64,000 nt of DNA, taken from assembly GCA_000004695.1 (NCBI GenBank), contig CM000150.2, forward strand, positions 4,672,001 to 4,736,000, written 5' to 3'. The notes beneath the pieces were generated by a model, which saw only the letters and a list, made by a program, of their open reading frames with translations, ran no database searches and was not told where the DNA came from. The stretch comes from Dictyostelium discoideum (taxonomy: Eukaryota). Shown here one piece after another: positions 8,332-37,123 of this stretch (position 1 is the stretch's first letter; each line of letters opens with the position of its first letter). Position numbers and translations under genes: made by a program.

Positions 8332-10412
<2,081 letters not shown>

Positions 10413-10725: not shown

Positions 10726-11415
10726 TGAATTTTTCCAGATATCCAGAAAACTATTTTTATTTTTTTCTTGAAATAAACTGAAATTGTTTTCAAGTTGTAT
10801 TGGTTTCTTATTAAAAACTAATATTACAGAAGATTCTAATCTAAATGTTTTGAAAAATTTTTCATCTGGATTTGTAAAACAATGTGTGTGAGAAATTGGA
10901 GGTTTGGTGATTGATAATGTACCAAAATGATTTGAGATTTTGAATTTGAATTCTGTAATGAAGGTATTGATAAGATCATAAGTTACTTTTTCATTTTCAT
11001 ACATATTTTATGAGAATGTGGTTGTTCCTTCTTTACCATCATCTGATATCTTGATATTTAAATTTGAAGCAGATACAAAAGGAGAAAACAGAAAAACATA
11101 TTTTTGATCAGGGGATACCAATTCTTGAAAACTAAATGACTGACATTCTGGATGTTCCATTGGATAACCAAAATACCCACCACCACCACCATCATCATCA
11201 CTTATTTTTTGTTTTTTATATGGATTAATTTGATTATAATTATTGAATAGTTCACCAGAATAATTATAATTGGAAATGGTTTTTCCTACCTCTTTTACTT
11301 TATCTTTTTCATTTTTTGAATTCACATGTGAAGATAATATTGGTGTGGTGGTGGTGGTGGTAGTGGGATAGTTTGTAAGTTGTGTAAAGTTGTTAATTGA
11401 TTGATTAACTGCCAT
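10687..11415 (-). CDS. Conserved-looking gene of unknown function, interrupted by a single in-frame TAA (11008-11010); possible pseudogene or sequence error.
   Basis: ORF 11008..11415 (MAVNQSINNF…GGGGGYFGYPMEHPECQSFSFQELV…GTTTFS*) and ORF 10687..11004 (MYENEKVTYDLINTFITEFKF…) are in the same frame, separated only by TAA plus one codon. Codon usage is coding-like on both sides. Confidence 0.4.
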
Positions 11416-12535
11416 AGTCTTGTTTATTTTAAAAATGTTAGCTATAATATTTCCCTTTTTCCAGTTACTTGAATTCTTTGAATATTATTCAAAGTAACTG
11501 GATCTTTGAATTATATATAGTATTCCCTATTGGGTATTTCATATTAAATTAATTTAGTTGTATCATTGTTTATTATGGCACCTAATTTTGAAAGTGTGTT
11601 GTATATTATTAGTTTATCTTCTTTACTAATTTCATTTAAAAATATAATTTTAATTGATTTTGAATCTGACCAAGGAACAATTTCAAAATTTATAGATGTA
11701 AAAGCATATTCCCAAAAATAACTGAATATGACTTTTCATCAATTGACTCTTTAACTGCATATTCATTAGAAGTTGTATCAAATATTTCTTTTCCTTTTCC
11801 TTTTCTTTTTCTTAATATTACTACATTTTAAATTAATTTATTTATATATTATTTTATTTTATTTTTTATTTATTATTTTTTTTTTATTTTACATCTTTAT
11901 TTTTTTTATTTTTAAATATTAATTTCAAAAAAAAAAAATATGTATATTAAATTCAAACCATCTGCGTGAGTTGTAATAGTTTGTTAGGGGTTAAATTTGC
12001 CTAAAGATGAATTTTTGTAAGTAAAAAAAAAAATTTTTTTGTAAAAAAAAATGAAAAAAAATGTTAAATGTTATCCAAATCAAATGAAAAAAAAACTTTT
12101 AAATGCCAGAATGATAAGATTTTCAAAGATGAATTGATTCTACCTAAAAAAATAATAAAAAATTAATTTTACTTTTTATAGATATTTTTTATTCTTATAA
12201 AAAAGTTGTTTAAATAAATTTATTTGTGTAATTATTATTTTCAATTGAATTTTTATTTAATTTTTATATTATTTTTAAAAGAAATAAAAATGATAATAAA
12301 AAAAAAAAAATTAATATTATATTCGAATTTTCAAAAAAAAAAAAAAAAGGAAAATAAGAAAATAATAATATATAATGTTGTGAAAATATTTTAATAAATA
12401 TTATAATAAAATAAAGTTTAGATTCCTAAATGTCTATTAAAAATAGTAAAACAATAATAATTATTTATTGAACATAAATAAATATGAAATTTGTTTTTTT
12501 TTTTTTTTTTTTTTTTGATTTTGATTTTTTTTTTT

Positions 12536-13855
12536 TTACATATATAAACCTTCTGGAGCACCAGCTGTTTTTCTGTATAAAACTTTTTCTTTTGCTTTTT
12601 TAAAATCAGTATGAGTTACTCTCATTCTACGTTCTCTGAGTGCTAAAAGACCAGATTCAGTACAGATGGCTTTGATATCAGCACCGGATAAATCATCTTT
12701 AGACATAACAAACTCTTCAAGGTTAACATCTTCAGAGAGATTCATTTTAGCAGTATGAATTTCAAAGATCTTTCTCTTGGTCTTAATATCTGGAAGAGGG
12801 AATTCAATTTTACGATCGATACGACCTGGACGAATGAGAGCAGGATCTAAAGTTTCAATACGATTTGTAGCCATGATAACTTTTACATCGGTTCTAGCAT
12901 CGAAACCATCCAATTGATTCAAGAGTTCCAACATAGTTCTTTGAATTTCACGTTCACCACCAGATTGAGAATCATAACGTTTGGTACCAACAGCATCGAT
13001 TTCATCAATGAAAACAATTGATGGTGCACATTCATCTGCAACTCTGAATAATTCACGAACTAATTTTGGACCATCACCTAAATACTTTTGAATTAATTCT
13101 GAGCCTACAACACGTAAAAATGTAGCGGATGTTTGATTTGCTACGGCTTTGGCTAATAAAGTCTTACCAGTACCTGGCTCACCATAGAGGATGACACCCT
13201 TTGGTGGTTTGATACCAATCTCCTCATAGAGCTCTGGATGAGTCAATGGCAATTCGATGGCTTCTTTCATCTCTTGAACTTGTGCTTCCAAACCACCGAT
13301 ATCGCTGTAGGATTCGGTTGGTGCCTTTTCAACCTTCATTACGTTCACCATTGGGTCGACTTCACCATCGATTACACCAACCACAGAGAGGGTCTTGTTA
13401 TTTAATAAAACAGTTGCGCCTAGGTAAAGTTTTGATTTATCTACAAATGACATGATACGGACATAATGCTCTGGTCCTACGGTTGATGACACGATGGCGT
13501 GATTATCATCGATAATCTCCTCCAAATTACCAACTGTCAATGGATCACCACGGAGTTCCTCAATGATTTTCTCATCGGCTTGTTCTTTGCTATTTTCATC
13601 AACCTTTGGTTGATTGAGATCATAGTTTTGTAAAAATTCTTGTTCCATTAATAAATAATCTTTAATACGTTCAAGTTTCAATTGTTTTAATTTACATTTT
13701 GAATGTGGTGTAATAACTGGTAATTTAGTTGATGTCTCTGCTCCTCTTCTCTTTTTCTTTTTACCAAATTGTGTTGGTGGTGGTGGTGGTTGATACTTTG
13801 GCTGATCTTTTTTTTCACCTTTATCACCTTGGCCTTGTGATTGATTATTACCCAT
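12536..13855 (-). CDS. psmC1: 26S proteasome regulatory ATPase subunit 4 (Rpt2/PSMC1), 439 aa, single exon
   Basis: The N-terminus is [10 protein letters not shown] (myristoylation-type MG). The Walker A motif GEPGTGKT, the Walker B motif IVFIDEIDA and the run [22 protein letters not shown] are present, as is the C-terminal …[11 protein letters not shown]. It aligns end to end with human PSMC1. Confidence 0.95.
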
Positions 13856-17366: not shown

Positions 17367-18015
17367 CATGCCAAATCACATTTTATTATTATCGTGTGGC
17401 TTTGGGTTTTTTGTATAAATAAAAAAAAAATATGAAATACACGATTTTGTGCAGGATTGTGGAGCGAATATTAAAAAAAAAAAAAATACCATTTGACACA
17501 AAGAAATTGTTTCTAAAAATATATTTTTTTTTGTTGCTTCCATTTTATTTTCTTTTTTTTTTTTTTATTTTATTTTTAATTTTTTTTTTCATTTTTTTTT
17601 ATTTTTTTTGCTGTTCAAAGTTTGGGGTGCAATTTTCAGTTTTTTTTAGATTTTTGAGTGGAGTCTTAAAGTTTTTTTTTCATTGCAAAAAAAATTTTCA
17701 CTTTTTTATGAATAGAAAATTAATAATAAAAAAAAAAGGTATTTTTATCTTCTTTTAAATTTGTTTAAATCAAAATAAATTTATTTTGTTTATTTTATTT
17801 TTATTTTTATTTTTATTTTTATTTTTATTTTTATTTTTTTTATTTTTATTTTTTTATATAAATATATATATATGCTTATAAAAAAAAAAAAAAATAAAGT
17901 TAAATAAAAAAAAATAATGGAGCCATTATTATAAATAAAAAACATCAAAATAATACTATAAAAGGTAAATATTTTCTGGTTTTTTTTTCAATTTCTAATT
18001 TTTTAATTTTTAATT

Positions 18016-18046
<31 letters not shown>

Positions 18047-18186
18047 GAAATTGTTTTTTTAAATTTAAATTTAATTTTTTTTTCATATATCTCTTTTTTT
18101 TTTATTAATCTTATTTAATATTTATTATTATTATTTTTTTTGTTTAAGTAACAAAAAAAAAAAAAAAAAAAAAAAAAGTATTTAGA

Positions 18187-18444
18187 ATGACACAAAACAT
18201 AAAAGAAAAGAATACTCACAATCACCATTATCAGTAATCAATATATAGAAGATACTCAATTAATTAGAGCTTTACAAAGAGTATTACCAGCTAAAATTCT
18301 CAAAGAGATTGAAGGTGATTTAACACAATTTGGTGAACGTGTTGTTAAGGATATTTTAGAATTAGGTAGAGCTTCTGAAAATAATCCACCAAAATTAATT
18401 CAATATGATGCATGGGGAAAGTAAGTTTTTCATTTATTTCTTTA

Positions 18445-18481
<37 letters not shown>

Positions 18482-19199
18482 TAATAATAAAAAATATTAA
18501 AAAAAAATTAAATAGGAGAATTGATAAAATTGTAGTTGATGAATCATGGAATAAATTAAAAGATATTGGATGCTCAGAAGGATTAGTATCAATTGGATAT
18601 GAAAGAAAATATCAAGAATATAGTAGAATTTATCAATATATAAAGATTTATTTATTTGCATGTTCATCAGCAGTATTTGATTGTCCAATGTCAATGACTG
18701 ATGGTGCAGCACGTTTAATTGAATTGTATGGTGATAAAGGAATGAAGGAGGATGAATATAAACATGAAGGTCAATGGATGACAGAGAAAACTGGTGGATC
18801 TGATGTTTCAAAATCTGAGACCATTGCTGTTAGCAGTGGTAGTGGTGATGGTAAAACATGCAATCTTAGTGGTTACAAGTTATGAATGGCGATATGGAAT
18901 ACGCAGAATCTAATTCACGTAGATTCGCTTATTTAATGGCTCAAACTTATATGGCATCGCTTTTATTAGAACATGCAGTTTGGTCAAAGGATGAATTGGA
19001 TGCTCAGGTCGCTGAAAGATGGTGTTTTGTTAAACTTGAAAATGGAAAAACTAATAAAAACTCTACAATTTCATTCACTGATGTTGATGAAAAATGGAGA
19101 GAATTAGACATTAAATTAGCTTTGGATTTAAATGAACATGGTCAACCAAAATTAGGTACCTATGATATTAATTCAACAAAATTAAGATCAAAATATTAA
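18187..19199 (+). pseudogene. Decayed copy of the AidB-like acyl-CoA dehydrogenase gene
   Basis: Exon 1 has a 34-bp deletion relative to 21545-21578, so it reads MTQNIKEKNTHNHHYQ* and stops. The same GTAAGT intron is present. Exon 2 has a 33-bp in-frame deletion at 18767. An ~905-bp internal deletion is flanked by (c)aagt microhomology (18868-18872 vs 22268-22272 and 23172-23176). The 3' end and 3' flank are near-identical to copy B. Confidence 0.85.
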
Positions 19200-19261
19200 T
19201 AAAACAATAAAATGTTGTATAAAGAAATTAAAAAAAAAAAAAAAAGATCCTTTTTAAATAA

Positions 19262-19295
<34 letters not shown>

Positions 19296-19304
19296 TATTT
19301 TTTT

Positions 19305-19592
19305 TTTATAAAAACTTTTGTTTAATAAACTTTATTATTAAATATTTAAGTATTTAATTTGATTAAATTTAATCATGAGTAATTTAATTTTACTCTTATA
19401 GTTTAAATTTTAATTTCTCTTGTTAGTTTTGAAGACCATGGGCACCAGAAGCAACTATCGAATTATTTATTTTTTATATATTTTTATTTTTTTTATTTTT
19501 TATTTTAAAAAAAAAAATTAGTAAATTAATCGAATTGTATTTTTCAAAATTTTATTTAATTAAATACATACCCTGGGAGGAAAGCTATTATT

Positions 19593-19600
<8 letters not shown>
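19305..19600 (+). repeat. Conserved ~270-bp element, copy 1 (in unit A)
   Basis: The sequence ctttattattaaatatttaagtatttaatttgattaaatttaatcatgagtaatttaatt…gttttgaagaccatgggcaccagaagcaactatcgaatta…aaatacataccctgggaggaaagctatt is about 90% identical to 23640..23910 and 43975..44232. Confidence 0.8.
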
Positions 19601-19658
<58 letters not shown>

Positions 19659-20188
19659 TATTAGTTTTAAATAAAAAGTTTAAATTTTATATGTTATAAT
19701 ACTCACCACCACAGGCCTCATCAAGGTGATCTTCTACATAAATAGTTGAAGCATCACAAACTTCAATAGCCATGGAAAAAAATGTGATTGTATCTGGGTC
19801 AAGAATAAAGGAATACTCTATAAGTGATGAAATGAAATTAATAAAATAATTATAAAATAATAATTAAAAGTCAATAGAATATTTACTTGGATTATAGCTT
19901 TCAGGTCTCTTTCTAATTCTACCCATTACATGAACTTCATTGGTTTCCTCTATTTTAAAAATTAAATAAAAATATTGTTAACAATATGAATGTTTTTTTG
20001 TTAAAAATAATATAAAACTTACTTCCAGACAAAATATCTCTGGCTTTTTTAATTTTTTCTGAATCTGTTAATTTGAAAATAAAATCATTATGGTCACCAT
20101 GGGTTTTTAAACCAAAATAGGCTGTTTCAGATTGTACCAATACTGAAAATATTAAAAGAAGAGATAATAAAACAAATAATAATTTCAT
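19556..20188 (-). CDS. Small secreted protein, paralog A (~122 aa). Model: complement(join(19556..19584,19707..19817,19887..19949,20023..20188)).
   Basis: Exon 1 reads [55 protein letters not shown] (signal peptide plus mature start) and ends at GTAAGT. Exon 2 reads [20 protein letters not shown] and ends at GTAAAT. Exon 3 reads …[37 protein letters not shown] and ends at GTGAGT. The short last exon (AFLPGYVFN*) lies inside the 270-bp conserved repeat; the alternative acceptor cccag|GG gives GYVFN*. All phases are 1. Confidence 0.65.
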
Positions 20189-20486
20189 TTTTTAATTGAG
20201 TTTTTAATTTGTTGTTTATAATTGAATTTGAATTTTAATTTGATAATGAAATAATTTAATTTTCAATTGTTTAAATACTTTTGGAAAAAAAAGAATAATA
20301 ATAATAATTATAATTAATATTAATTATTAATTAAAAAAAAAAAAAAAATAATAATATTAATTATTATTATTAATAAAAAATAATTTCCAAACTTCTAGGA
20401 TGATAAAAACGTAAAATAATTTTAACCCACACTTGCGAGATAATTACTCCAAAACTTGTAATTTTATCCAATTGGGTGTGTTATTA

Positions 20487-20557
<71 letters not shown>

Positions 20558-21372
20558 TTTTATTTGTTTTATTTTTCTTTTTTTTTTTCATAATAAAAAA
20601 ATCTTCACGCAAAAAACACCACACATCCAATTAAAAAAAAAAAAAAAAAATCTTTCTGTGAAGATTTAATAAATCTAATTATTATAATTTAATGACAAAA
20701 AAAAAAGGATAATTATATAATTAAATTGAAATTTCTTTGAATTTTTTATAGTGAAAATTATATATTATTAATTTTTTTTTTTTTGAAAAAAAAAGAAGTT
20801 CTTAAAAATAAAATTGATGACTTTTTTTTGAAAATCTTGTTTTGATGATTAGGGGAAAATATCTAAAAAAATCAAAAAAAAAAAAAAAAAAAAAAAAAGT
20901 TTTATTAAAAAAAAAACAAAAAAAAACAAAAAAAAAAAGTATTTTTGTCTTCTTTTAATTTGTTCAAATCAAAATAAATTTATTTTGTTTATTTTATTTT
21001 ATTTTTATTTATTTTTTATTTGATTTTATTTTTTTTATATAAATATAATTATTTTTTTTTTTTTTTTAATAAGCATATAAAGTTAAATAAAAAAAATAAT
21101 GGAGACATTATTATAAATAAAAACATCAAAAGAATACTATAGAAGGAAAATATTTTCTGGTTTGAAATTTCAATATTTTATTTTTTAATTTTTATTATTT
21201 TCCAAAAAAAAATTACGTTTTGATGATTTTTTTTTTATTACCATCTTTCTGTTTAGGATTAATAAATTAAGGAAAATATGTCGCTATTTTTTTTTTCAAT
21301 TTCTAATTTTTTAATTTTTAATTTATTTTATTTTTTTTTTTTTTTTTTTTAAAAATTTTTTTTTTTAAATTT

Positions 21373-21406
<34 letters not shown>

Positions 21407-21513
21407 CTTTTTTCATATATCTCTTTTTTTTTATTAATCTTATTTAATATTTATTATTATTATTTTTTTTGTTTAAGAAACAAAAAAAAAAAAAAAAAAA
21501 AAAAGTATTAAGA

Positions 21514-21806
21514 ATGGCCCAAAACATAAAAGAAAAGAATACTCAAACTGGTTATTCTGGTAGAGAGTATTTCCAACAACAATCACCATTATTAGGTAAT
21601 CAATATATAGAAGATACTCAATTAATTAGAGCTTTACAAAGAGTATTACCAGCTAAAATTCTCAAAGAGATTGAAGGTGATTTAACACAATTTGGTGAAC
21701 GTGTTGTTAAGGATATTTTAGAATTAGGTAGAGCTTCTGAAAATAATCCACCAAAATTAATTCAATATGATGCATGGGGAAAGTAAGTTTTTCATTTATT
21801 TCTTTA

Positions 21807-21840
<34 letters not shown>

Positions 21841-23492
21841 TAATAATAAAAAATATTAAAAAAAAATTAAATAGGAGAATTGATAAAATTGTAGTTGATG
21901 AATCATGGAATAAATTAAAAGATATTGGATGTTCAGAAGGATTAGTATCAATTGGATATGAAAGAAAATATCAAGAATATAGTAGAATTTATCAATATAT
22001 AAAGATTTATTTATTTGCATGTTCATCAGCAGTATTTGATTGTCCAATGTCAATGACTGATGGTGCAGCACGTTTAATTGAATTGTATGGTGATAAAGGA
22101 ATGAAGGAGGATGAATATAAACATTTCATATCACGTGATCCAAAGACATTTTGGACAAGTGGTCAATGGATGACAGAGAAAACTGGTGGATCTGATGTTT
22201 CAAAATCTGAGACCATTGCAGTTAGCAGTGGTAGTGGTGATGGTAAAACATGCAATCTTAGTGGTTACAAGTATTTCACATCAGCAACTACCTCAGAGGG
22301 TGCAATGGTATTGGCAAGAGATGTTGACGATGCAAAAACCATGAAAGGTGCAGTTGAGGGATCCAGAGGTTTATCAGTTTACTTTATAAAATTAAGAAAA
22401 CCAAATGGTGAACTCGATCGTATTCAAGTTCACAAGTTAAAGAATAAATTTGGAACAAAAGCAGTACCAACCGCAGAACTTGAGTTAATGGGTACACCAG
22501 CAGTTAGAGTTGGACCAAAAGGTAGAGGTGTACCAGTGATTGCCTCCATATTAAATATCACTAGAATTCATAATGTAATCCATTCAGCAGCCACAATGAG
22601 AAGATGTGTTGCAATTGTAAGAGATTTCGCTCATCGTCGTACTGTATTTGGTAAATTATTAAAAGATAACTTATTATATCTTTCAACATTGGCAGAGATG
22701 GAATTAGAATTTAGAGCTAGTTTACATTTACTTTTGGATGTTACCTTATTGTTGGGTAAGAGTGAACGTATTGTTGAAAAACAATCATCAAATAGTGAAG
22801 AACAAAAACAAATTGACCTCCTATTACGTATTGTTACACCACTTTCAAAATTGTATACTGCAAAACAAAGTGTTACAGTCGCATCAGAGGCTATTGAAGC
22901 ATTGGGTGGCACTGGTTATATGGAAGATTCCGATATGCCACGTCTATTTAGAGACACTCAAGTAACATCGATTTGGGAAGGTACAACCAACGTTTTATCA
23001 ATGGATATTTGGAGAACCTTAAAAGAACCATTAACAATTAAATTCTATTTCCAATCAATTGAAAATCGTTTAATTCAAGCAAATAAATTATTAAATAATG
23101 ATAACAATATTCAAAAAGTTATTTCAGTAATTAGAGAAGCAATGAAAACTATTCGTTCAGTTATTGATAAAGTTATGAATGGTGATATGGAATACGCAGA
23201 ATCTAATTCACGTAGATTCGCTTATTTAATGGCACAAACTTATATGGCATCGCTTTTATTAGAACATGCAGTTTGGTCAAAGGATGAATTGGATGCTCAG
23301 GTCGCTGAAAGATGGTGTTTTGTTAAACTTGAAAATGGAAAAACTAATAAAAACTCTACAATTTCATTCACTGATGTTGATGAAAAATGGAGAGAATTAG
23401 ACATTAAATTAGCTTTGGATTTAAATGAACATGGTCAACCAAAATTAGGTACCTATGATATTAATTCAACAAAATTAAGATCAAAATATTAA
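21514..23492 (+). CDS. Acyl-CoA dehydrogenase family protein, AidB-like; join(21514..21782,21875..23492), 628 aa
   Basis: Exon 1 reads MAQNIKEKNTQTGYSGREYFQQQSPLLGNQYIED…IQYDAWGK, with donor GTAAGT at 21783 and acceptor aaatag at 21874 (phase 2). Exon 2 carries …WTSGQWMTEKTGGSDVS… (the AidB-type GMTEK.GGSDV motif), …ELMGTPAVRVG…, …ALGGTGYMEDSDMPRLFRDTQVTSIWEGTTNV… (the ACAD C-terminal helical domain), and a C-terminal extension. The track ORF 21469..21786 starts at a non-ATG codon. Confidence 0.8.
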
Positions 23493-23555
23493 TAAAACAA
23501 TAAAATGTTGTATAAAGAAATTAAAAAAAAAAAAAAAAAGATCCTTTTTAAATAA

Positions 23556-23616
<61 letters not shown>

Positions 23617-23639
23617 TATTTTTTTTTTATAAAAACTTT

Positions 23640-23905
23640 TGTTTAATAAACTTTATTATTAAATATTTAAGTATTTAATTTGATTAAATTTAATCATGAG
23701 TAATTTAATTTTACTCTTATAGTTTAAACTTTAATTTCTCTTGTTAATTTTGAAGACCATGGGCACCAGAAGCAACTATCGAATTATTTATTTTTTATAT
23801 ATTTTTATTTTTTATTTTAAAAAAAAAAAATTAGTAAATTAATCGAATTGTATTTTTCAAAATTTTATTTAATTAAATACATACCCTGGGAGGAAAGCTA
23901 TTATT

Positions 23906-23910
<5 letters not shown>
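23640..23910 (+). repeat. Conserved ~270-bp element, copy 2 (in unit B)
   Basis: Collinear with 19305..19600. Confidence 0.8.
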
Positions 23911-24004
<94 letters not shown>

Positions 24005-24533
24005 TATTAGTTTTTAATAAAAAGTTTAAATTTTATATGTTATAATACTCACCACCACAGGCCTCATCAAGGTGATCTTCTACATAAATAGTTGAAGCAT
24101 CACAAACTTCAATAGCCATGGCAAAAAATGTGATTGTATCTGGGTCAAGAATAAAGGAAAACTCTATAAGTGATGAAATGAAATTAATAAATAATTATAA
24201 AATAATAATTAAAAGTCAATAGAATATTTACTTGGATTATAGCTTTCAGGTCTCTTTTTAATTCTACCCATTACATGAACTTCATTGCTTTCCTCTATTT
24301 TAAAAATTAAATAAAAATATTGTTAACAATATGAATGTTTTTTTGTTAAAAATAATATATAACTTACTTCCAGACAAAATATCTCTGGCCATTTGAATTT
24401 TTTTGGAATCTGTTAATTTGAAAATAAAATCATTATGGTCACCATGGGTTTTTAAACCAAAATAGGCTGTTTCAGATTGTACCAATACTGAAAATATTAA
24501 AAGAAGAGATAATAAAACAAATAACAATTTCAT
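23870..24533 (-). CDS. Small secreted protein, paralog B (duplicate of A within unit B)
   Basis: Exon 1 reads [55 protein letters not shown]; it differs from A at 3 residues. The exon structure is the same as A by collinearity. Coordinates are approximate. Confidence 0.6.
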
Positions 24534-24975
24534 TTTTTAATGGAGTTTTTAATTTGTTGTTTATAATTGAATTTTAATTTTAATTTGATAATGAAATAAT
24601 TTTATTTTCAATTGTTTAAATACTTTTGGAAAAAAAAATAATAATAATAATTATAATTAATATTAATTATTAATTAAAAAAAAAAAAAAAAATAATAATA
24701 TTAATTATTATTATTAATAAAAAAAATATTTTCCAAATTGCTAGGATGATAAAAACGTAAAATAATTTTAACCCACACTTGCGAGATAATTACTCCAAAA
24801 CTTGTAATTTTATCCAATTGGATGTGTTATTATTTTTATTATTATTATTATTATTATTAATAAAAAAAATAATTTCCAAACTGTTGGGATGATAAAAACC
24901 TAAAATAATTTTAACCCACACTTACGAGATAATTACTCCAAAACTTGTAATTTTATCCAATTGGGTGTGTTATTA

Positions 24976-25006
<31 letters not shown>

Positions 25007-25434
25007 TTTTATTTGTTTTATTTTTTTTTTTTTTTTTTTCATAATAAAAAAATCTTCACACAAAAAACACCACACATCCAATTAAAAAAAAAAAAAAAAT
25101 CTTTCTGTGAAGATTTAATAAATCTAATTATTATAATTTAATGACAAAAAAAAAGGATAATTAAATAATTAAATTGAAATTTCTTTGAATTTTTTAAAGT
25201 GAAAATTATATGTTATTAATTTTTTTTTTTTTTTTTGAAAAAAAAAGAAGTTCTTAAAAATAAAATTGATGACTTTTTTTTGAAAATCTTGTTTTGATGA
25301 TGATTAGGGGAAAATATCTAAAAAAAATCAAAAAAAAAAAAAAAAAAAAAAAAAGTTTTATTAAAAAAAAAACAAAAAAACAAAAAAAAAAAAAAAAACC
25401 CTCAAACTCAATTTCCAAAGCAAAATCTTAAACA

Positions 25435-27014
25435 ATGACTAGTTTAACATTATATTTGATTATATTTTCAATTATCTTATATTTGTTTGTAAATGTAATT
25501 TTTTATTTTTTTTTTTTTATTTTTTTTTTCAAAAATTGATTTATCTTTATCTTAAAACTAATTTTTTTTTTATTTATTTTAAATTAATTAACTAGAGAAA
25601 TAAAAGAAAAAATTTAAAAATTCCAGGACCTAATGGAATTCCAATTTTCGGTAATTTATTATCTTTAAGTGGTGAAATGCATTTAACACTACAAGAATGG
25701 TATAAAACTTATGGATCTGTATTTTCCATTAGAATGGGTAATATTGATACAGTGGTTTTAACTGAATATCCAACTATTAGAAAAGCATTTGTTGATAATT
25801 CATTAGCATTTGCAAGTAGATATCAATTGAAAAGTAGAGTTGTATTAACTGGTGCTAAAGATCTTGCTATTCAAAATGGTGAAATTCATTCATTATTGAA
25901 AAAAGTAGTTTTATCAGAAATGACTACAACCAAAATCAAAAGAATGGAAATTCATATAATTAAAGAAACTGAAAAAATTTTAAAAATTTTAGATAAACAT
26001 GCTGAACGAGGTGAACCATTTATAATTAATAATTATTTAAATATGTTTTCAATGAATGTTATACTTCGATTTTTATTAGGTATTGATTATCCATATGAAA
26101 ATGTTGATGAAACAGTTGGATATGTTAAAAGCATTAAAAGTTTCTTTGCAGTTGCTGGTCTCCCAATTCTATCAGACTTTATTCCTATCCCATTGAAAAA
26201 ATCTGGTGTTTTCTTTGACTCTTATAAAGAATTAGAAATTGAAACTGATAAATTAATTGAAAAATTTAAAAAATCTAGAAATGAGAAAATTGAAAATGGA
26301 ACATACAATGAAGAAGAAGATGAATCAATTCTATCAAAATTATTAAAAGAATATGAACATGGTAATATCACATGGGAATGTGTTTCACATACATGTATTG
26401 ATATAATTTCCGCTGGTACTGATACTTCTGCAAATACATTGGTTATGGCATTGATTGAATTAATAAATAATCAAGAAATTCAATCTAAAGCTTTTTCAAG
26501 TATTAGATCATCATGTTTAAATGATTCAAATGATGATGATGATGATGATGAAATTGTAATCACTCATAGTAAATATCGTTCATTATTACCTTACATTTCA
26601 ATGATAATTAAAGAAACATTTAGAAAACATCCAATTGCTTTACTTGGTTTACCACATGTTACAACTGAAGATGTTGAAATTGATGGATATAAAATTGAAG
26701 CTGGTACATATATCATTCAAAATATTTTCTCAAGTCATAGAAGTGATAAAATTTTCCAATCACCAAATGAATTCATTCCAGAAAGATTCTTTGAATCATC
26801 TCAAAATCAAGGTTTAATTCATTTTGGTTTAGGTGTTAGAGACTGTGTTGGAAAGTCATTAGCAGAGTGTGAAATTTTCACATTAATTGCAACCTTATTA
26901 AATAGATATCAATTTATTAATCCAAATAATTCAAAAAAATTAAATGATATTGGTACATTTGGTTTGGCTCAAGTTTGTCCAGATACTAATATTATTTTAA
27001 AAAAAAGAATTTAA
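25435..27014 (+). CDS. Cytochrome P450. Exon 1 ~25435..25485 (membrane anchor), exon 2 ~25575/25627..27014.
   Basis: Exon 1 reads MTSLTLYLIIFSIILYLFVN and is followed by GT donors (gtttgt/gtaaat/gtaatt). Exon 2 reads …KNLKIPGPNGIPIFGNLLSL… (the P450 proline hinge). Further downstream are …AGTDTSANTLVMALIEL… (I-helix AGxDTT), ETFRKHP (ExxR) and FGLGVRDCVGKSLAECE (heme-binding FxxGxRxCxG). An in-frame TAA just upstream of 25600 bounds exon 2. The exact exon 1/2 junction and phase are not resolved. Confidence 0.85.
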
Positions 27015-31858: not shown

Positions 31859-34800
31859 TCATATGAATTGATCAAAAGATATAATATTTGGGAGAGATGA
31901 TTCTGGAATACAATAGTAATTAGCTGTTTTTTTTCTTAGCTTGATCGTTGAAGTGAGAAGGATCTTAGGATCTTTGAAGTTATTATGGTCTTTTGCTGAT
32001 AAGTTTTTCAGATCTTTTGCTTTTTTGATGTATTCTAGAGTGGCCAATTTGTGCCATTTCTTTAGAAGGGAGCTGTATGATAGTGATTCATCTGTTAAAG
32101 GATCTTCACTGTATATTTGATTGCAAATCCAAATCCAAATGTTGTGGAGGATAAGGGCCATTAGGTTTCTATATGCGAATGATCTGGTTAGATCATATTC
32201 TATTGCTTTATAGTTCCATTCAAAGTATTCTTTGTGGAATCTGTCGTTGGCGTAATCTGCATTCACTTCTTGATCTTTTTTGGCTGTCGGTGATAATTTT
32301 GGAGTTATTCTATTAATGAAATTGTTATTTTGCCTAATTCTTGTATGGTGCCAGTTTTTACCTTTGCCTGTGGTAATATAGATGAAATTTTTGAGTTTAT
32401 TTATTTTTATGAATTGTTTTGTTTTCTTGCATGAGAAGAACAGGTGACCGTATGGGTCTTTGCTCATATCTTCTTTGCAGAGTGGGCATTGTTTGTTGTG
32501 AAGGTAGTTTATTGGAAGGCATCTGGCATGGAATCTAAACATTGTGTCTCTTGTTTTAGGGTCTTTTATCTTCAGTATGTTGTTGAAGAGTTGATTATAG
32601 CTGTAGCCTCTTAAGTTTAGAGATGATTGGAATTCCGTTTTAGGGATGGTTGGATTTTGGTCTTGAATTGTGGTATACCATTCTGCCAGTGAAAGTGGTC
32701 GTCCATTTTCGTTTTTTATGGATGTGAGATTATTGTTGAAGATTGCTTTTTTTATTCTTATTTTGTTCCATTCGTCTAAGTTTTCTTTTAGGTATCTGGA
32801 TGTGAATTTGTTTTTTTGAATCTGATATTCCCAGCTTTTGTGATGAGATGAGTTTGTTTGTTTGGTTTCTAGTGCTAGGATGAACTGGTTTATGATCCAA
32901 AGTTTCTGCGCCAGTTGTCTCAATTCTATATTCCAAATGTTCCAGCCCCCTACTTTTAGTGGGTATCTTGCTCTTTTGGTTCTCATTAAATTAATAACTT
33001 GAAATCCACTAGCATTTTTGTTGTTTGGTGCCGATAAAAACCATTCGACTAATTAATTGATTTGGTTTAATTCCTCTTCCTTAAAGTTCTCTACATATGA
33101 ATAGTAGGTTAATTTAGAGAGTGCGAATGCTTTGAGGATGTTGGTTTTGGTTTTGATTGTTGAGTCAGTGGTTTTCCATAGTACTAAGGATGATCTTATT
33201 GTGTTTAATATTTCTGGCATTTTTCTTGTTATCCCTTTACCTGTGAAGAAGTATCCCAAGTATCTTTCTGGATTTGTAGATATTGGAATTCTTTGGTTGG
33301 TATTGTCTGGGTTGCCTATAAGAATTGATGAAGATTTGTCCATGTTAAGTTTTGAGGAAGTGGCTTTGCAAAATGAATTGAAGTGTTGTAGTACTAATTC
33401 AAGTTGTTGAGAGTCTGGGACCATTGAAGCCGAGTCGTCTGCAAAGCTTTGGAATTTCTCTCTGTGGTTGCTGTTGTTTAGAGGAAGGCCAGTAATTCGG
33501 TCATCTTGTAAAATTTTTCTAGCTAAAGCCTCTATTACAAGGACGAACAGGGTGGGTGATAGTGGATCTCCTTGTTTAACTCCTCTTTTGATCTCAAAGG
33601 GTATAGTAGTTCTACCATTAATTTCAATTCTTGCTTCAGATTTGGTGAGTAGATTCATTATCAGGTTGATTATATTGGTTGGAATGTTGATGTGTTGTAG
33701 TGATCTAAGTATTGAACCGTGTGAGATCGAGTCAAAAGCTTTTTCGAAATCATATAGTGTAATTATTCCGTTAATTCTTTTATCATTACAATAGTTGATT
33801 AATTCGTTCATTGATATGATATTATCTAGAATGAATCTGCCTGGTACGAAACCTTTTTGATTGTGGTTGATCACTTTCGTTAGTATTGGGATTATTCTAT
33901 TGTTTATTAGCTTTGAGTGGATTTTATATATACAGTTAGCCAGTGTAATTGGTCTTCTGTTTTTGATTAGTTCGGGGTCTCCCTTTTTAGGTATCGTGAT
34001 AATGAGGCCTTCTTTGTAATTTTTGCTAATTAGATGAGGATTTCTTAGAGTGTCGTTGAATGCTGAGGCCAGTATTGGAGCTAGTTTTTCTTTGTGTGTT
34101 ATGTAGAATAAGTTTGGAATTCCATCTGGACCTGGAGATTTGTGTGGGTTCAGTTGTTTTATTACTTCTAGGATCTCTTGTGAGGTGAATTCATTTTCAA
34201 GGTTGTCCCATGTTGAGTCCCTGGTCACTGTCCAATTTTCCAACATTTCGTAATGAGATGGTGGGTCATCTTCTTTGTAGTCATAAAGATTTGAGTAATA
34301 TTTTACGTATTCTTCTTCGATCAATTCCTGTTTGTTGATTGTTCTACCTTGTGCATCTTTTACTGCGTTGATGGTGAAATCATTGTGTCTTTTCTTGATT
34401 CTCGCGGAGATGTACTTGAGTGAGGTTTCTTCGCAATAGTTGTTCAATTCTTGTTTAAGTTGTTCTTCTCTTTTTTTAGATTCATTTATTGCTGAAAGGG
34501 TTGCGAAGGCTTGGTCTTTAAATTCTGTCTCTAGTAGGGAGATTAGATTTTTGATGTTTGCCTTATTGTTGTAGTCGTTTTGTTTTTGAAATTCGGTGTA
34601 TAGTTGTTTTATTTTGTTCAGTAAGCTGTTGAGTTGAGAGAAGGAAATAGAGTTATGGTTGGCTGACAGCTCCCTTGAATAATCGTTAAGTAGGAAGTCT
34701 ATTTTCTTAAGCATTATGCTTGAGAGGATTGAGGATTTTTTTAATCTCCATCTGCGCTTGTTCATCTGTATGTTGGGTAGAGTGAAAGTGGTTGATAGGA

Positions 34801-35458
34801 AGTTGTGATCTGATAGAGGTATGTCGTTAATTTTTGGGGGGATTAGGTTCCTTAGGTATAATTGGCTGTAGTTGATTAAGCTATTGTTAAGGTATATTCT
34901 GTCTAGTCTCCTTTCCAAGATTCTTGTGAGGTTATTGTTTGTGTTGTGTATCGTTCTTGAGAAGGTGGGTCTTTTATTTAGTTGGTCCATATCCATTAGG
35001 TTATTTGAAATTCTGATGGCTTCGATTACTGTGGCCATCTCATCTGGGGATTGTGTTGTCAAGTTGCCTTGGTCATCATTTGATGTGTGATTGTCATTGA
35101 AGTCTAAACAGTTGAAGTCTCCTGCTATGATGTCGATGTTTTTATTAGGGTTAGACGTTAGGTTGTGGTATTGGTTGTTGAAGTGTTTGTTTAGTGTTGA
35201 AGCTAGTGTTTTTCTTTTATCAGGTTGGGCCGGGGTGTATATGGCCAAGATTCTCGTTGTGGTATCTTTTATTAGAATGTCTGATATTATTAGTCTACCT
35301 TCTATTATGAATATTGGTGAGAGTTTTATGTTTTGGTTGTTGTGGTTTAGTATTCCTATTCCGTTGCCTCTGTTGGTTGCACTAATGATGGAGCCAGGAA
35401 ATAGCTGGTGTGCTTGTGTTGCGTCAGCATTGAGTTCATTGACTATGGTTAGTGCCAA
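31859..35458 (-). CDS. Retrotransposon ORF2 (APE endonuclease - RT - Zn knuckle), split over two frames (33053..35458 and 31859..32986)
   Basis: See the mobile_element entry. The frame change near 32987-33052 indicates a frameshift in this copy, or a natural frameshift site. An intact copy is needed for comparison. Confidence 0.7.
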
Positions 35459-35907
35459 TGAGTTTGGGGGGGATTGGGATTTGATAAAGTCTGTTTTGTT
35501 TTTGAAGGAGGTGTCAGTGCCCCAACCTCTGACATTCCATTGGTTGATTTTGATTACTACTATTATGAGATGATATCGATCTCCTCTTGGGAGTCGTATA
35601 GCTGCGGTTTGGATGGTGAAGGGTAGATACTCTCTATGAAGCTCTCAATGATTCCTTTACTTTCTTTTTTGACAGGTGTCTTAGGGGTGGATGGGATGTA
35701 AGGGTTGCTTCTGTTTATTGTTGGTGAGAGTTGGGTGACTTCATTGTTTGAGTGGATTTCCTCGTTCTTGCGTTTATGTGATGGAGGGATGTTTAGTGTC
35801 TTCTCTCTGTTTTCCGAGGATGAATGGATGTTATTGCTCGTTTTGTTGGCATTGTCTTTTTGGATGGCGTTGGATGTTGTGGTAGTGGTTGTGGTGGGTT
35901 TAACAGA

Positions 35908-36813
35908 TTAAGATTCTGCTGGGTTTTTGGGGGGAAGAGGTTGAGATGACTTTTTTGCTTGGGCTTTTTTCTCTTGTGTTGATTGTTTTTCAGACTGATT
36001 GTTTGCTGGGTTGTTTGTTTGTTGTTGTGGTTTTGGTTGAGAGGATTTGATTGCTATCCTGTTTTGGGTGTTAGGAGGATCTGTCATCTCATCTTCTAAT
36101 GGTTCCTCCGTGTTGTTTGTCTCTACTTTCTTGTTTTTCTTTTGTGAGGAGTAGGTTTTGGTGGCCGTTCTGATGGTAAAGTTTGCGATTTCTGTAATGT
36201 GTTGGCCAGATTTCATTTGATCGCCTATTTTGCATTCTATTAGACCGAATACTATGAGGTGGTCGGTGGAGTATATAGTATTGTATATTGCATAGGGTAT
36301 TTCTTCTGCAAAGGCAGTTTTGATGAGGGCGTCCACTATTCCTGCCTTTTCTCTGGGAATTCTTACTCTTCCTGTGAGGACGTGGAAGTCTCTACTGGAG
36401 GTGATGAAGGTTCCCAATTTGCTTCTATCTCTAATGATATTTAGGAGAGATTGTTCGTTTTTAATCATCAGGTGGATCATTTTTCTAGTTCCTTTGCCTA
36501 TGTATATCTTGTCGAATGGGATATCGTAGTTTGAGAGTGTTTTTCTCATTTCTTCTAACCCCTTGAGATCCATTTTGGGGAATTCGAGTGTAATTGGGTA
36601 GAATCCGTTGTTCTTCTCATAGGTTGAGAGCGCAGTCATGTTCAATATGGTCTCGCAGTATTTGGAGATGTCTTTGAGGCCTATTGATAGTTTGGGGTAG
36701 GTCTCCTTTATCTCTGCTGTTTTTGTGGAGAATTCCTTAATGAAGTTCTCCGATGCCTCGTCCATATGGGTGGAGGGGTTGGCCATTTTAGCCGCGTCTG
36801 CGTAGGAATTCAT
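35908..36813 (-). CDS. Retrotransposon ORF1 protein (301 aa)
   Basis: The ORF reads MNSYADAAKMANPSTHMDEASENF… and ends in a basic/Q-rich C-terminus. It lies immediately inside the element 5' end. Confidence 0.7.
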   Translation of the reverse strand: MNSYADAAKMANPSTHMDEASENFIKEFSTKTAEIKETYPKLSIGLKDISKYCETILNMTALSTYEKNNGFYPITLEFPKMDLKGLEEMRKTLSNYDIPFDKIYIGKGTRKMIHLMIKNEQSLLNIIRDRSKLGTFITSSRDFHVLTGRVRIPREKAGIVDALIKTAFAEEIPYAIYNTIYSTDHLIVFGLIECKIGDQMKSGQHITEIANFTIRTATKTYSSQKKNKKVETNNTEEPLEDEMTDPPNTQNRIAIKSSQPKPQQQTNNPANNQSEKQSTQEKKAQAKKSSQPLPPKNPAES

Positions 36814-37020
36814 CTCGATGGGATTCCTTTGAATCGGCGATTTGGTATGTTAGATCTGTAGATCGTGGGATTGGTGATTTTTTTTGAAAAATTGGTTAAA
36901 ATTGACCGAGATTAAAGATAGAAAAGGATGAATTACTTTTCACGTGTATCTTGTATCCTCTTGATCGCGGTACGGTTTTTTTTTACATGGATTTCTTAAT
37001 ATTTTTAAACCATTAAAGGT

Positions 37021-37031
37021 TTCGAACCTGC
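37021..37031 (-). promoter_or_regulatory. External B box (exB) downstream of tRNA gene
   Basis: On the tRNA strand, GGTTCGAAACC lies about 21-31 nt past the tRNA 3' end. This is a second B-box-like element, as typically found downstream of Dictyostelium tRNA genes. Confidence 0.6.
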
Positions 37032-37051
37032 GATCCTTCTTTTCATTTAAA

Positions 37052-37123
37052 AGGCTCCAATGAGGATCGAACTCATGACCTCTTCCTTACTAGGGAAGCG
37101 CAATACCACTATGCTATGGAGCC
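37052..37123 (-). tRNA. tRNA-Thr (anticodon AGU)
   Basis: The reverse complement reads GGCTCCATAGCATAGTGGTATTGCGCTTCCCTAGTAAGGAAGAGGTCATGAGTTCGATCCTCATTGGAGCCT. The 7-bp acceptor stem is GGCTCCA/TGGAGCC. The A box is TAGCATAGTGG. The anticodon stem is CTTCC/GGAAG with loop CTAGTAA (U33, anticodon AGT, A37). The T arm is ATGAG-TTCGATC-CTCAT. A T-run follows on the coding strand as terminator. Confidence 0.9.

Follow-up and report, generated by a model that had tools for sequence, protein, structure and literature searches.

A tandem duplication on Dictyostelium discoideum chromosome 1 pairs a deletion-ridden dehydrogenase copy with two apparently intact BP74_N genes

Nonfunctionalisation is the classical fate of a redundant tandem duplicate, which ends as a non-processed pseudogene, as described by Ohno and by Lynch and Conery. 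The locus analyzed here lies on chromosome 1 of D. discoideum AX4, in a window (the whole stretch of DNA that was analyzed) of 64,000 nucleotides. It shares with non-processed duplicated pseudogenes a direct tandem arrangement, a retained intron, an intact adjoining paralogue, multiple independent lesions and single-copy sister lineages, and it does not differ from them in kind; its distinctive details are the opposite fates of two genes of one unit and a decay consisting almost entirely of deletions instead of point mutations. Large duplications are also known in D. discoideum laboratory strains, among them that of AX4 chromosome 2 (PMC12745789). These are likewise segmental and belong to the same strain lineage, but they span hundreds of kilobases, are of laboratory origin and are essentially identical, whereas the present duplication measures 4.5 kb, has diverged by ~0.7% and carries five deletions.

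Two protein families are involved. Among the ACAD10/ACAD11/AidB-like dehydrogenases, copy B has all four domains and Dictyostelia-wide orthologues (58–95% identity), while copy A is missing the middle domain and the first C-terminal one and cannot be such an enzyme. The BP74_N family (PF23621) comprises small secreted proteins that occur in Dictyostelia, in Mucorales and in myxobacteria or actinobacteria and go by the name of 'calmodulin' or 'calmodulin-binding protein'. Both small genes of the locus match this family end to end (E = 1e-39 to 1e-40) and share a signal-peptide-like N-terminus and a C-terminal CFWCPW motif. The full-text literature yielded nothing relevant on DDB_G0269116, DDB_G0270788, DDB_G0270352 or CaM-BP15, and in the literature on tandem duplication or pseudogenes in Dictyostelium we found no description of this locus.

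Extent, authenticity and age of the duplication

Self-BLAST and global MAFFT alignment delimit two adjacent, collinear units that share one orientation and meet at a definable junction: unit A at ~17738–20938 (+ strand; 3.2 kb after deletions) and unit B at ~20939–25398 (+ strand; 4.46 kb, near the original unit length). An earlier note on this DNA had proposed a tandem segmental duplication with collinear, highly identical units at 17745–20934 and 20935–25380; its arrangement was borne out and its limits have been redrawn. Identity is 96.3% over 3220 aligned columns (~99.3% with low-complexity sequence excluded), and the units are set apart by 119 substitutions and by 31 indels, of which five are large. 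Each unit carries an ACAD11/AidB-like dehydrogenase (ACAD, + strand) and a convergently oriented gene for a BP74_N secreted protein (− strand), and the segment also spans nearly all intergenic DNA up to the neighboring P450 gene. The left breakpoint of unit A falls in an A10 run (17728–17737), the junction in an A11 run (20928–20938) and the right breakpoint of unit B in an A17 run (25382–25398), 37 bp upstream of the P450 ATG at 25435. With poly(A) at both outer breakpoints and at the junction, the duplication would most likely have originated when two A-runs separated by 4.46 kb underwent unequal exchange or template switching; poly(A) is so abundant between Dictyostelium genes that its presence at breakpoints constitutes weak evidence of mechanism.

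A mis-joined or artificially expanded repeat could in principle mimic such a structure, and prior caution about AT-rich Sanger-era assemblies is all that speaks for it. The many substitutions and indels separating the units do not fit a duplicated read pile. Moreover, a second assembly, GCA_054883475.1 of BioProject PRJNA1300491, built de novo from Nanopore and Illumina reads (PMC12745789) and almost certainly representing a sibling laboratory strain, presumably AX2, is collinear with positions 9351–30223 of the window (99.5% over 20.8 kb). This independent assembly reproduces the entire region, with the same two units, the same lesions and a truncated ACAD, so that the duplication is not an assembly artefact. 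The long-read check suggested in the earlier note has therefore come out in favor of two units; the artefact reading is effectively already refuted, and we attach next to no credence to it.

In the four outgroups ACTFIW, ACTFIR, ACTFIZ and ACTFIY, one ACAD/BP74_N unit is found between matching flanking genes (an AAA ATPase and a ~610-aa gene on one side, P450 and ERG2 on the other), and D. firmibasis and D. citrinum each have a single ACAD. A search of these six other Dictyostelium loci for concealed remnants or further copies found none; as all six are single-copy, the duplication is confined to the AX4 lineage. The outgroups also identify two derived features of unit B. A 143-bp tandem repeat upstream of its small gene (24699–25001; 2.1 copies, 94% matches) is single-copy in unit A (20375–20516) and in one outgroup (L006), so its tandem state arose in B. 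Likewise, a ~23-bp segment upstream of ACAD-B (21052–21074) is inverted relative to unit A (17874–17894), whose orientation the outgroups share, which places the inversion in B.

Divergence along the unit is patchy, amounting to ~4% in alignable upstream blocks, ~0.7% in gene bodies and 3% in small-gene exons, and a single neutral clock therefore fits poorly. At their 5' ends the units are 82–84% identical, which had raised the possibility of an older or composite duplication; this was rejected, as the low identity there is mostly low-complexity misalignment together with a 127-bp deletion and the small inversion. The ~0.7% background corresponds to about 5–9% of the depth of the splits from the outgroup lineages, and in such relative terms the duplication is recent, as the earlier note had it. 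Given this divergence, the five independent deletions and its presence in a second NC4-lineage assembly, however, the event long predates laboratory culture.

Decay of dehydrogenase copy A

The intact dehydrogenase, ACAD-B (DDB_G0270352, 628 aa), is encoded at 21514–23492 (+ strand) by two exons (21514–21782 and 21875–23492) separated by an intron (21783–21874). Its AidB_N, Acyl-CoA_dh_M, Acyl-CoA_dh_1 and ACDH-11_C domains all score above the Pfam gathering scores, and omega between orthologues is 0.08–0.15; on these comparisons it is a strongly constrained, normally single-copy gene.

The remnant in unit A (pseudo-ACAD, 18187–19199, + strand) reads MTQNIKEKNTHNHHYQ from its ATG and then stops, giving 16 codons with a stop at codon 17. 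Each of the three segments that survive is in a different reading frame, and tblastn to copy A matches only residues 26–222 and 522–628 of the dehydrogenase. The intron is kept without a mismatch (18421–18515 in A, against 21783–21874 in B), and its retention together with flanking non-coding DNA marks the remnant as non-processed instead of a retrocopy.

Three deletions had been listed for this copy in the earlier note. All three are present, but their sizes and make-up required amendment, and a fourth had been overlooked. The 34-bp frameshifting deletion in exon 1 (A 18217/18218, + strand; B 21545–21578, codons 11–22) is accompanied by a separate 1-bp deletion about 16 nt downstream, and it is the pair that shifts the frame. 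The event described as a 33-bp in-frame deletion is a replacement of 36 bp (B 22125–22160) by a GAA filler (A 18766–18768, + strand), through which codons 174–185 (FISRDPKTFWTS) become a single E with a net in-frame loss of 33 bp. The internal deletion estimated at ~905 bp measures 901 bp (A 18876/18877, + strand; B 22269–23169); it removes codons 222–521 plus 1 nt, is by itself out of frame, and takes most of Acyl-CoA_dh_M, all of Acyl-CoA_dh_1 and the start of ACDH-11_C. The additional lesion, a 127-bp deletion (A 17979/17980, + strand; B 21161–21287), lies upstream and removes a block conserved in the four outgroups.

The junction of the 901-bp deletion has 4 bp of microhomology, with AAGT at both flanks, and that of the 127-bp deletion has 3 bp (TTT); the two others show 1 bp each, and the 3-bp filler belongs to the 36-bp event. 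A repeat of 4–5 bp had been claimed for the largest deletion; the base before AAGT differs (C versus A), which limits the microhomology to 4 bp. By our own estimate, chance would produce 4 bp or more at about 5% of random junctions in DNA of such composition.

Every indel in the dehydrogenase could be polarised, with 4/4 single-copy outgroups carrying the state of B, and only 3 A-derived point substitutions occur in ~0.9 kb. By this polarity, all lesions of the copy A dehydrogenase are best read as derived deletions in A, and the copy itself as a non-processed pseudogene made by deletions, as the earlier note had proposed. Might splicing around the lesions nevertheless yield a useful truncated protein? 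About 203 and 107 codons of open reading frame remain, in two different frames, and the automatic annotation of the second assembly contains a 281-aa product with AidB_N and ACDH-11_C matches. That model, however, has to invent introns and to begin in low-complexity sequence upstream; codons 222–521, which encode the FAD-binding and catalytic middle and C-terminal domains, are physically missing, and the conserved promoter block is deleted. Furthermore, AX4 RefSeq has no protein here: XP_646729, XP_646730 and XP_646731 run consecutively over small gene A, ACAD-B and small gene B. We consider a functional truncated product very improbable.

Structure and divergence of the BP74_N gene pair

The opposite-strand gene is intact in both units, as had been claimed, with five exons and 134 aa in each. 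Small gene A (DDB_G0270788; 19403–20188, − strand), which encodes a signal-peptide-like N-terminus, has exons at 20188–20023, 19949–19887, 19817–19707, 19584–19572 and 19454–19403. Small gene B (DDB_G0269116; 23724–24533, − strand) has exons at 24533–24368, 24294–24232, 24163–24053, 23897–23885 and 23775–23724, and is listed in UniProt as 'putative calmodulin-binding protein CaM-BP15', a depositor's label. The fifth exon was recognised from the deposited proteins, and the 77-aa open reading frame of the earlier note is exon 1 read through into intron 1, as a list of bacterial-type open reading frames misleads in a eukaryote whose introns are short and AT-rich. With 134.1 and 137.2 bits, the two copies exceed the BP74_N gathering score of 27, and both matches cover profile positions 1–100 of 114. 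Small gene A retains all its splice sites, its signal peptide and the conserved C-terminal exon with CFWCPW; both genes are structurally intact and very probably expressible. They differ at 12 of 405 nucleotides and at 8 residues (E44K, K47Q, K48M, T58S, R68K, Y78F, S91A and I134V) over the 134 aa, instead of the three previously counted.

On the evidence of omega values of 0.5–0.9 between orthologues and of adjacent BP74_N locus tags in D. dimigraforme, P. violaceum and Parasitella, the family appears as a fast-evolving one that repeatedly occurs in tandem pairs in other taxa. A further member in the window, DDB_G0270796 (44417–44915), looks truncated.

The earlier note held that selection keeps this passenger gene. 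The pair dN/dS it called for is 0.62, indistinguishable from 1 (Fisher p = 0.70), and exons diverge faster than introns: the 12/405 differences in small-gene exons compare with 11/1582 in introns, 3' intergenic DNA and ACAD (p = 0.0007), i.e., 4.4 times the non-coding and ACAD background. Such an excess is the opposite of a conservation signature and would suit diversification or ectopic conversion; the sequence data give no demonstration that purifying selection has kept the small-gene copies. Conversion between units A and B was rejected as a cause of the uneven divergence within the small gene, where low-divergence introns alternate with higher-divergence exons.

Small gene A could also simply be a young redundant copy that drifts neutrally, its 405 coding bases as yet unhit. 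Its pair dN/dS agrees with this, family members do decay, as the truncated appearance of DDB_G0270796 illustrates, and about one large deletion would be expected in a target of that size. By our own estimate, four large deletions per ~2.5 kb of pseudogene translate into ~1.3 in the ~0.8-kb small gene, with P(0) ~0.27, so the absence of a lesion there is unsurprising. On the other hand, the splice sites, signal peptide and CFWCPW exon of copy A have all survived, it carries fewer derived replacements than B, and drift leaves the faster divergence of exons than introns unexplained. We regard neutral drift as a tentative possibility.

A second account holds that the exon excess stems from ectopic gene conversion, in which A or B would receive short patches from other BP74_N paralogues on chromosome 1, homologous in the exons only. 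Synonymous and nonsynonymous sites are both raised and introns are not, and 4/9 polarised derived states match the base in DDB_G0271074 (L009, some 37 kb distant) or in the paralogue that begins the window's 44417–44915 stretch (P = 0.002 with a per-site null of 0.07). Paralogue-variable sites are, however, the least constrained, so that parallel substitution inflates the matches, and under a conservative bound P is 0.10. No tract was seen in which flanking bases specific to a paralogue had been transferred along, and a cluster of changes at codons 43–48 of B is unlike both sampled paralogues save at one site. The paralogue at 44417 was rejected as donor of this cluster, as it holds the ancestral state; TCCAAAAAAATTCAAATG at codons 43–48 exemplifies what a donor paralogue would carry. 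We consider conversion from these paralogues rather doubtful.

Alternatively, the pair may be under positive or diversifying selection (neofunctionalisation), in which case the duplication would have been kept for the small gene, with the dehydrogenase as collateral cargo. The exon excess itself, a nonsynonymous density of 8/319 against 11/1582 (p = 0.008), the family's high omega and its recurrent tandem pairs all point this way, as does the cluster at codons 43–48, where four B-derived nucleotide changes produce three amino-acid changes, next to one unpolarised synonymous change. Against it, the pair dN/dS lies below 1, and synonymous sites are equally raised (4/83, p = 0.005), which argues for mutational input and not for protein-level selection. 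The counts are very small, and the signal weakens to p = 0.04 when the cluster is treated as one event and to p = 0.07 without it. Taken by itself, we think diversifying selection unlikely.

A polarised case of duplication and loss

We consider it highly probable that the locus arose by a single direct tandem duplication, after which dehydrogenase A decayed by deletion and both small genes stayed intact. In the history we propose, a 4.46-kb segment was duplicated once in the ancestry of the NC4-derived laboratory strains. As the dehydrogenase appears strongly constrained and normally single-copy, its extra copy would have been redundant; it was presumably inactivated and is being removed through five or more independent deletions, of which the largest has microhomology of a type that end-joining or slippage could leave and another has filler DNA.

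The locus is a real yet ordinary case of the well-known process of duplication followed by loss. It provides a fully polarised textbook example, in which one duplication left two passengers with opposite fates and decay proceeded almost wholly by deletion, and several long-read Dictyostelium genomes make dating relative to sister lineages possible. For annotation, the AX4 model of DDB_G0270788 ends in a wrong C-terminus, the ACAD remnant deserves a pseudogene flag, and the 281-aa 'protein' of the second assembly is most plausibly a pseudogene artefact. No new question is opened, and the sole mildly unexpected result is the faster divergence of small-gene exons than introns. It is conceivable, if on balance improbable, that the young BP74_N pair is being actively diversified, through positive selection on a surface patch (codons 43–48), through ectopic conversion confined to exons among clustered paralogues, or through both. 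In that event it would be the small gene, and not the dehydrogenase, that gives the duplication its importance, and the locus would offer a tractable snapshot of a fast-evolving secreted family expanding in a social amoeba.

A tandem duplication specific to the AX4 lineage

Protein searches assigned the window to Dictyostelium discoideum AX4 chromosome 1, so that it requires eukaryotic gene models with short GT..AG introns rather than a bacterial ORF list; its composition is ~20% G+C, and the intergenic DNA is homopolymer-rich with (ATT)n runs. Self-BLAST and global alignment recovered two collinear, direct copies with 96.3% identity over 3220 aligned columns, which bears out, with numerical corrections, the tandem duplication claimed in an earlier note on this DNA. 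Each unit comprises an ACAD11/AidB-like acyl-CoA dehydrogenase (ACAD) on the plus strand and a small secreted-protein gene on the minus strand. By reading the flanks, we placed unit A at ~17738-20938 and unit B at ~20939-25398. All three boundaries sit in A-runs, namely A10 (17728-17737) on the left, A11 (20928-20938) at the A/B junction and A17 (25382-25398) on the right, and each is therefore ambiguous by ~10 nt. The duplication may have originated by unequal exchange or template switching between such runs. A cytochrome P450 gene follows, its ATG lying 37 bp downstream of the right breakpoint.

A second D. discoideum assembly, GCA_054883475.1, shows the same order of BP74_N gene, 628-aa ACAD, BP74_N gene and truncated ACAD, and is collinear with window 9351-30223 (99.5% over 20.8 kb, only 14 mismatches). 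Holland et al. 2025 (PMC12745789) produced their assemblies, this one included, de novo from Nanopore and Illumina reads and included AX2 in their strain list; based on this list and the near-identity to AX4, we infer that GCA_054883475.1 comes from AX2, a sibling strain that derives from the same wild isolate as AX4. The two-unit order is thus reproduced from long reads, and the assembly artefact considered in the earlier note is excluded, though by a genome that does not count as an independent sample from nature. Four further assemblies (two labelled D. discoideum, two D. cf. discoideum) contain a single ACAD-BP74_N unit with the same flanking genes, and D. firmibasis and D. citrinum have one ACAD each; tblastn searches of all six 22-kb loci recovered neither a further copy nor a remnant. 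There was one tandem duplication, and it is confined to the AX4 lineage. The single-copy lineages are ~8–12% diverged from AX4 in this region (ACAD dS 0.08–0.14), and the divergence between A and B is ~0.7% across unique sequence (non-coding and ACAD), which dates the duplication to roughly 5–9% of the age of those lineage splits. It is evolutionarily young, yet far predates laboratory culture.

Decay of the dehydrogenase in unit A

Using the four single-copy loci as outgroups to set indel polarity, we found that all large indels are deletions in A. The three deletions previously described in ACAD-A (remnant 18187-19199) are all present, with amendments. Exon 1 has lost 34 bp (B 21545-21578) and, separately, 1 bp, causing a frameshift; the supposed 33-bp deletion is a replacement of 36 bp by GAA (B 22125-22160; net 33 bp, in frame, FISRDPKTFWTS to E); and the large deletion measures 901 bp (B 22269-23169), removing codons 222-521 plus one base, so that the middle and first C-terminal domains are gone together with the beginning of ACDH-11_C. 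Overlooked was a 127-bp deletion (B 21161-21287), which has taken out upstream sequence that all outgroups conserve. Read from its own start codon, copy A meets a stop after 16 codons, and the surviving pieces are spread over three frames. Promoter, reading frame and catalytic domains are lost, and the proposed pseudogenisation holds, with frameshift, stop and catalytic-domain loss all derived in A. Since the intron is kept with no mismatch, ACAD-A is, judged by its sequence, a classical non-processed pseudogene, here inside a tandem duplication. Only three point substitutions in ~0.9 kb are A-derived, and decay has therefore proceeded almost entirely by deletion.

The microhomology noted at the large deletion (AAGT) is confirmed at 4 bp; the 127-bp deletion shows 3 bp and the others 1 bp. 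Such microhomology does not strongly indicate the mechanism as claimed, since we estimate that at least 4 bp occurs at ~5% of random junctions of this composition; the junctions are compatible with end-joining or slippage, and the deletions may have arisen by microhomology-mediated repair. In GCA_054883475.1, a 281-aa protein (AidB_N and ACDH-11_C) is auto-annotated on the pseudogene (10990-12845 of the extracted locus L001, equivalent to ~window 17380-19235). The start of this model lies in low-complexity DNA upstream, and the model is probably an artefact of gene prediction; its product cannot be a dehydrogenase because the catalytic core is physically missing.

ACAD-B (DDB_G0270352, annotated 'acyl-CoA dehydrogenase family member 11'; plus strand, exons 21514-21782 and 21875-23492) is an intact two-exon gene of 628 aa with AidB_N, Acyl-CoA_dh_M, Acyl-CoA_dh_1 and ACDH-11_C domains. 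Strong constraint between orthologues (omega 0.08–0.15) is consistent with a single-copy gene, dosage-insensitive or dosage-averse, for which a second copy was simply superfluous; copy A would have decayed owing to this redundancy.

Upstream of its small gene, unit B has acquired a tandem repeat of 143 bp (24699-25001), and a ~23-bp inversion lies upstream of its ACAD (21052-21074). Across the alignable upstream blocks (21085-21160) and the first ACAD codons, eight substitutions could be polarised, seven of them derived in the functional copy B rather than in the pseudogene; those near the ACAD start (21510-21519) include Thr to Ala at codon 2. The upstream region of ACAD-B now adjoins copied small-gene/P450 intergenic DNA. 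This excess may reflect regulatory adjustment or mere chance, the numbers being small.

BP74_N genes and their neighbourhood

The small gene, initially read as a 77-aa ORF, is in each unit a five-exon, 134-aa BP74_N gene (PF23621, E ~1e-39) whose product has an N-terminus resembling a signal peptide and whose C-terminal CFWCPW exon is conserved. Copy A (19403-20188, minus strand) is DDB_G0270788; copy B (23724-24533, minus strand) is DDB_G0269116, labelled 'putative calmodulin-binding protein CaM-BP15' in UniProt. Both copies keep the splice sites of all four introns and the open 134-codon frame and, as the earlier note stated, are intact at the sequence level; like ACAD-B, they are already annotated in AX4. 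The AX4 model of DDB_G0270788 has 133 aa and ends ...GAFLPGYLLLVPMVFKTNKRN (exon 4/5 boundary, 19556-19584 and 19403-19454). This ending differs only because the model splices at GTATTT, 4 nt downstream from the GTATGT donor of its twin, which shifts the last-exon frame. With copy B's donor, the window DNA encodes the conserved ending ...GAFLPGCFWCPWSSKLTREIKI, identical to the second-assembly protein; the deviant C-terminus is probably an annotation error.

A third member, DDB_G0270796 (plus strand, ATG 44417; window 44058-44915), is apparently truncated at 111 aa. No conserved CFWCPW exon was found downstream of it, an orphan exon-5-like fragment lies just upstream on the opposite strand (44108-44058), and the region looks like another partly decayed or rearranged BP74_N copy. 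The position of BP74_N relative to ACAD varies between species loci: downstream and convergent in the discoideum clade, upstream on the same strand in D. firmibasis (locus L004, 8657-9485), and absent from the whole D. citrinum locus (L005). BP74_N has moved or been gained and lost repeatedly around a stable ACAD-P450-ERG2 backbone.

Elsewhere in the window, a minus-strand non-LTR retroelement (31859-37123) adjoins a tRNA-Thr(AGT) gene (37052-37123), the usual layout of Dictyostelium tRNA-targeted (TRE) retrotransposons. Its ORFs encode 801 aa with a reverse-transcriptase domain and 375 and 301 aa without Pfam match, and it accounts for the GC-rich, strongly skewed 32–37 kb block.

Exon divergence of the secreted-protein pair

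Between the small-gene copies there are 12 differences in 405 nt, and eight residues differ, not three as first reported. Selection keeping this passenger gene, as had been proposed, is unsupported: dN is 0.027, dS 0.043 and omega 0.62 (Nei-Gojobori), indistinguishable from 1 (p = 0.70). As omega between orthologues is 0.5–0.9, the BP74_N family as a whole is under weak constraint or evolves fast, and the intactness of 405 bp is therefore no evidence of selection.

Unexpectedly, divergence is higher in the exons (12/405, 3.0%) than in the introns of the same gene, the 3' intergenic sequence and ACAD (11/1582, 0.70%; Fisher p = 0.0007), with p = 0.04 when a cluster at codons 43-48 is counted as one event and 0.07 when it is removed. 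This cluster packs five of the 12 coding differences into 16 nt (24390-24405, small gene B), one of them unpolarised; it may stem from a multinucleotide mutation, from conversion by a paralogue outside the two examined, or from selection. Most polarised changes are derived in B, namely the other four cluster changes (E44K, K47Q, K48M), Y78F and one synonymous change, with K68R, a codon 91 change and one synonymous change derived in A. Synonymous and nonsynonymous densities both exceed background, and four of nine polarised derived bases are shared with a nearby paralogue, either DDB_G0271074 (~37 kb off) or the copy at 44417 (null P = 0.002; conservative bound 0.10). Exon-restricted ectopic conversion thus fits at least as well as positive selection, although a clean conversion tract is not visible and neither paralogue examined offers a donor for the codon 43-48 cluster.

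Our literature search found no description of this locus, and tandem duplication of gene families is commonplace in the Dictyostelium discoideum genome. The one mildly interesting lead is that divergence within the secreted-protein pair is accelerated specifically in the exons.
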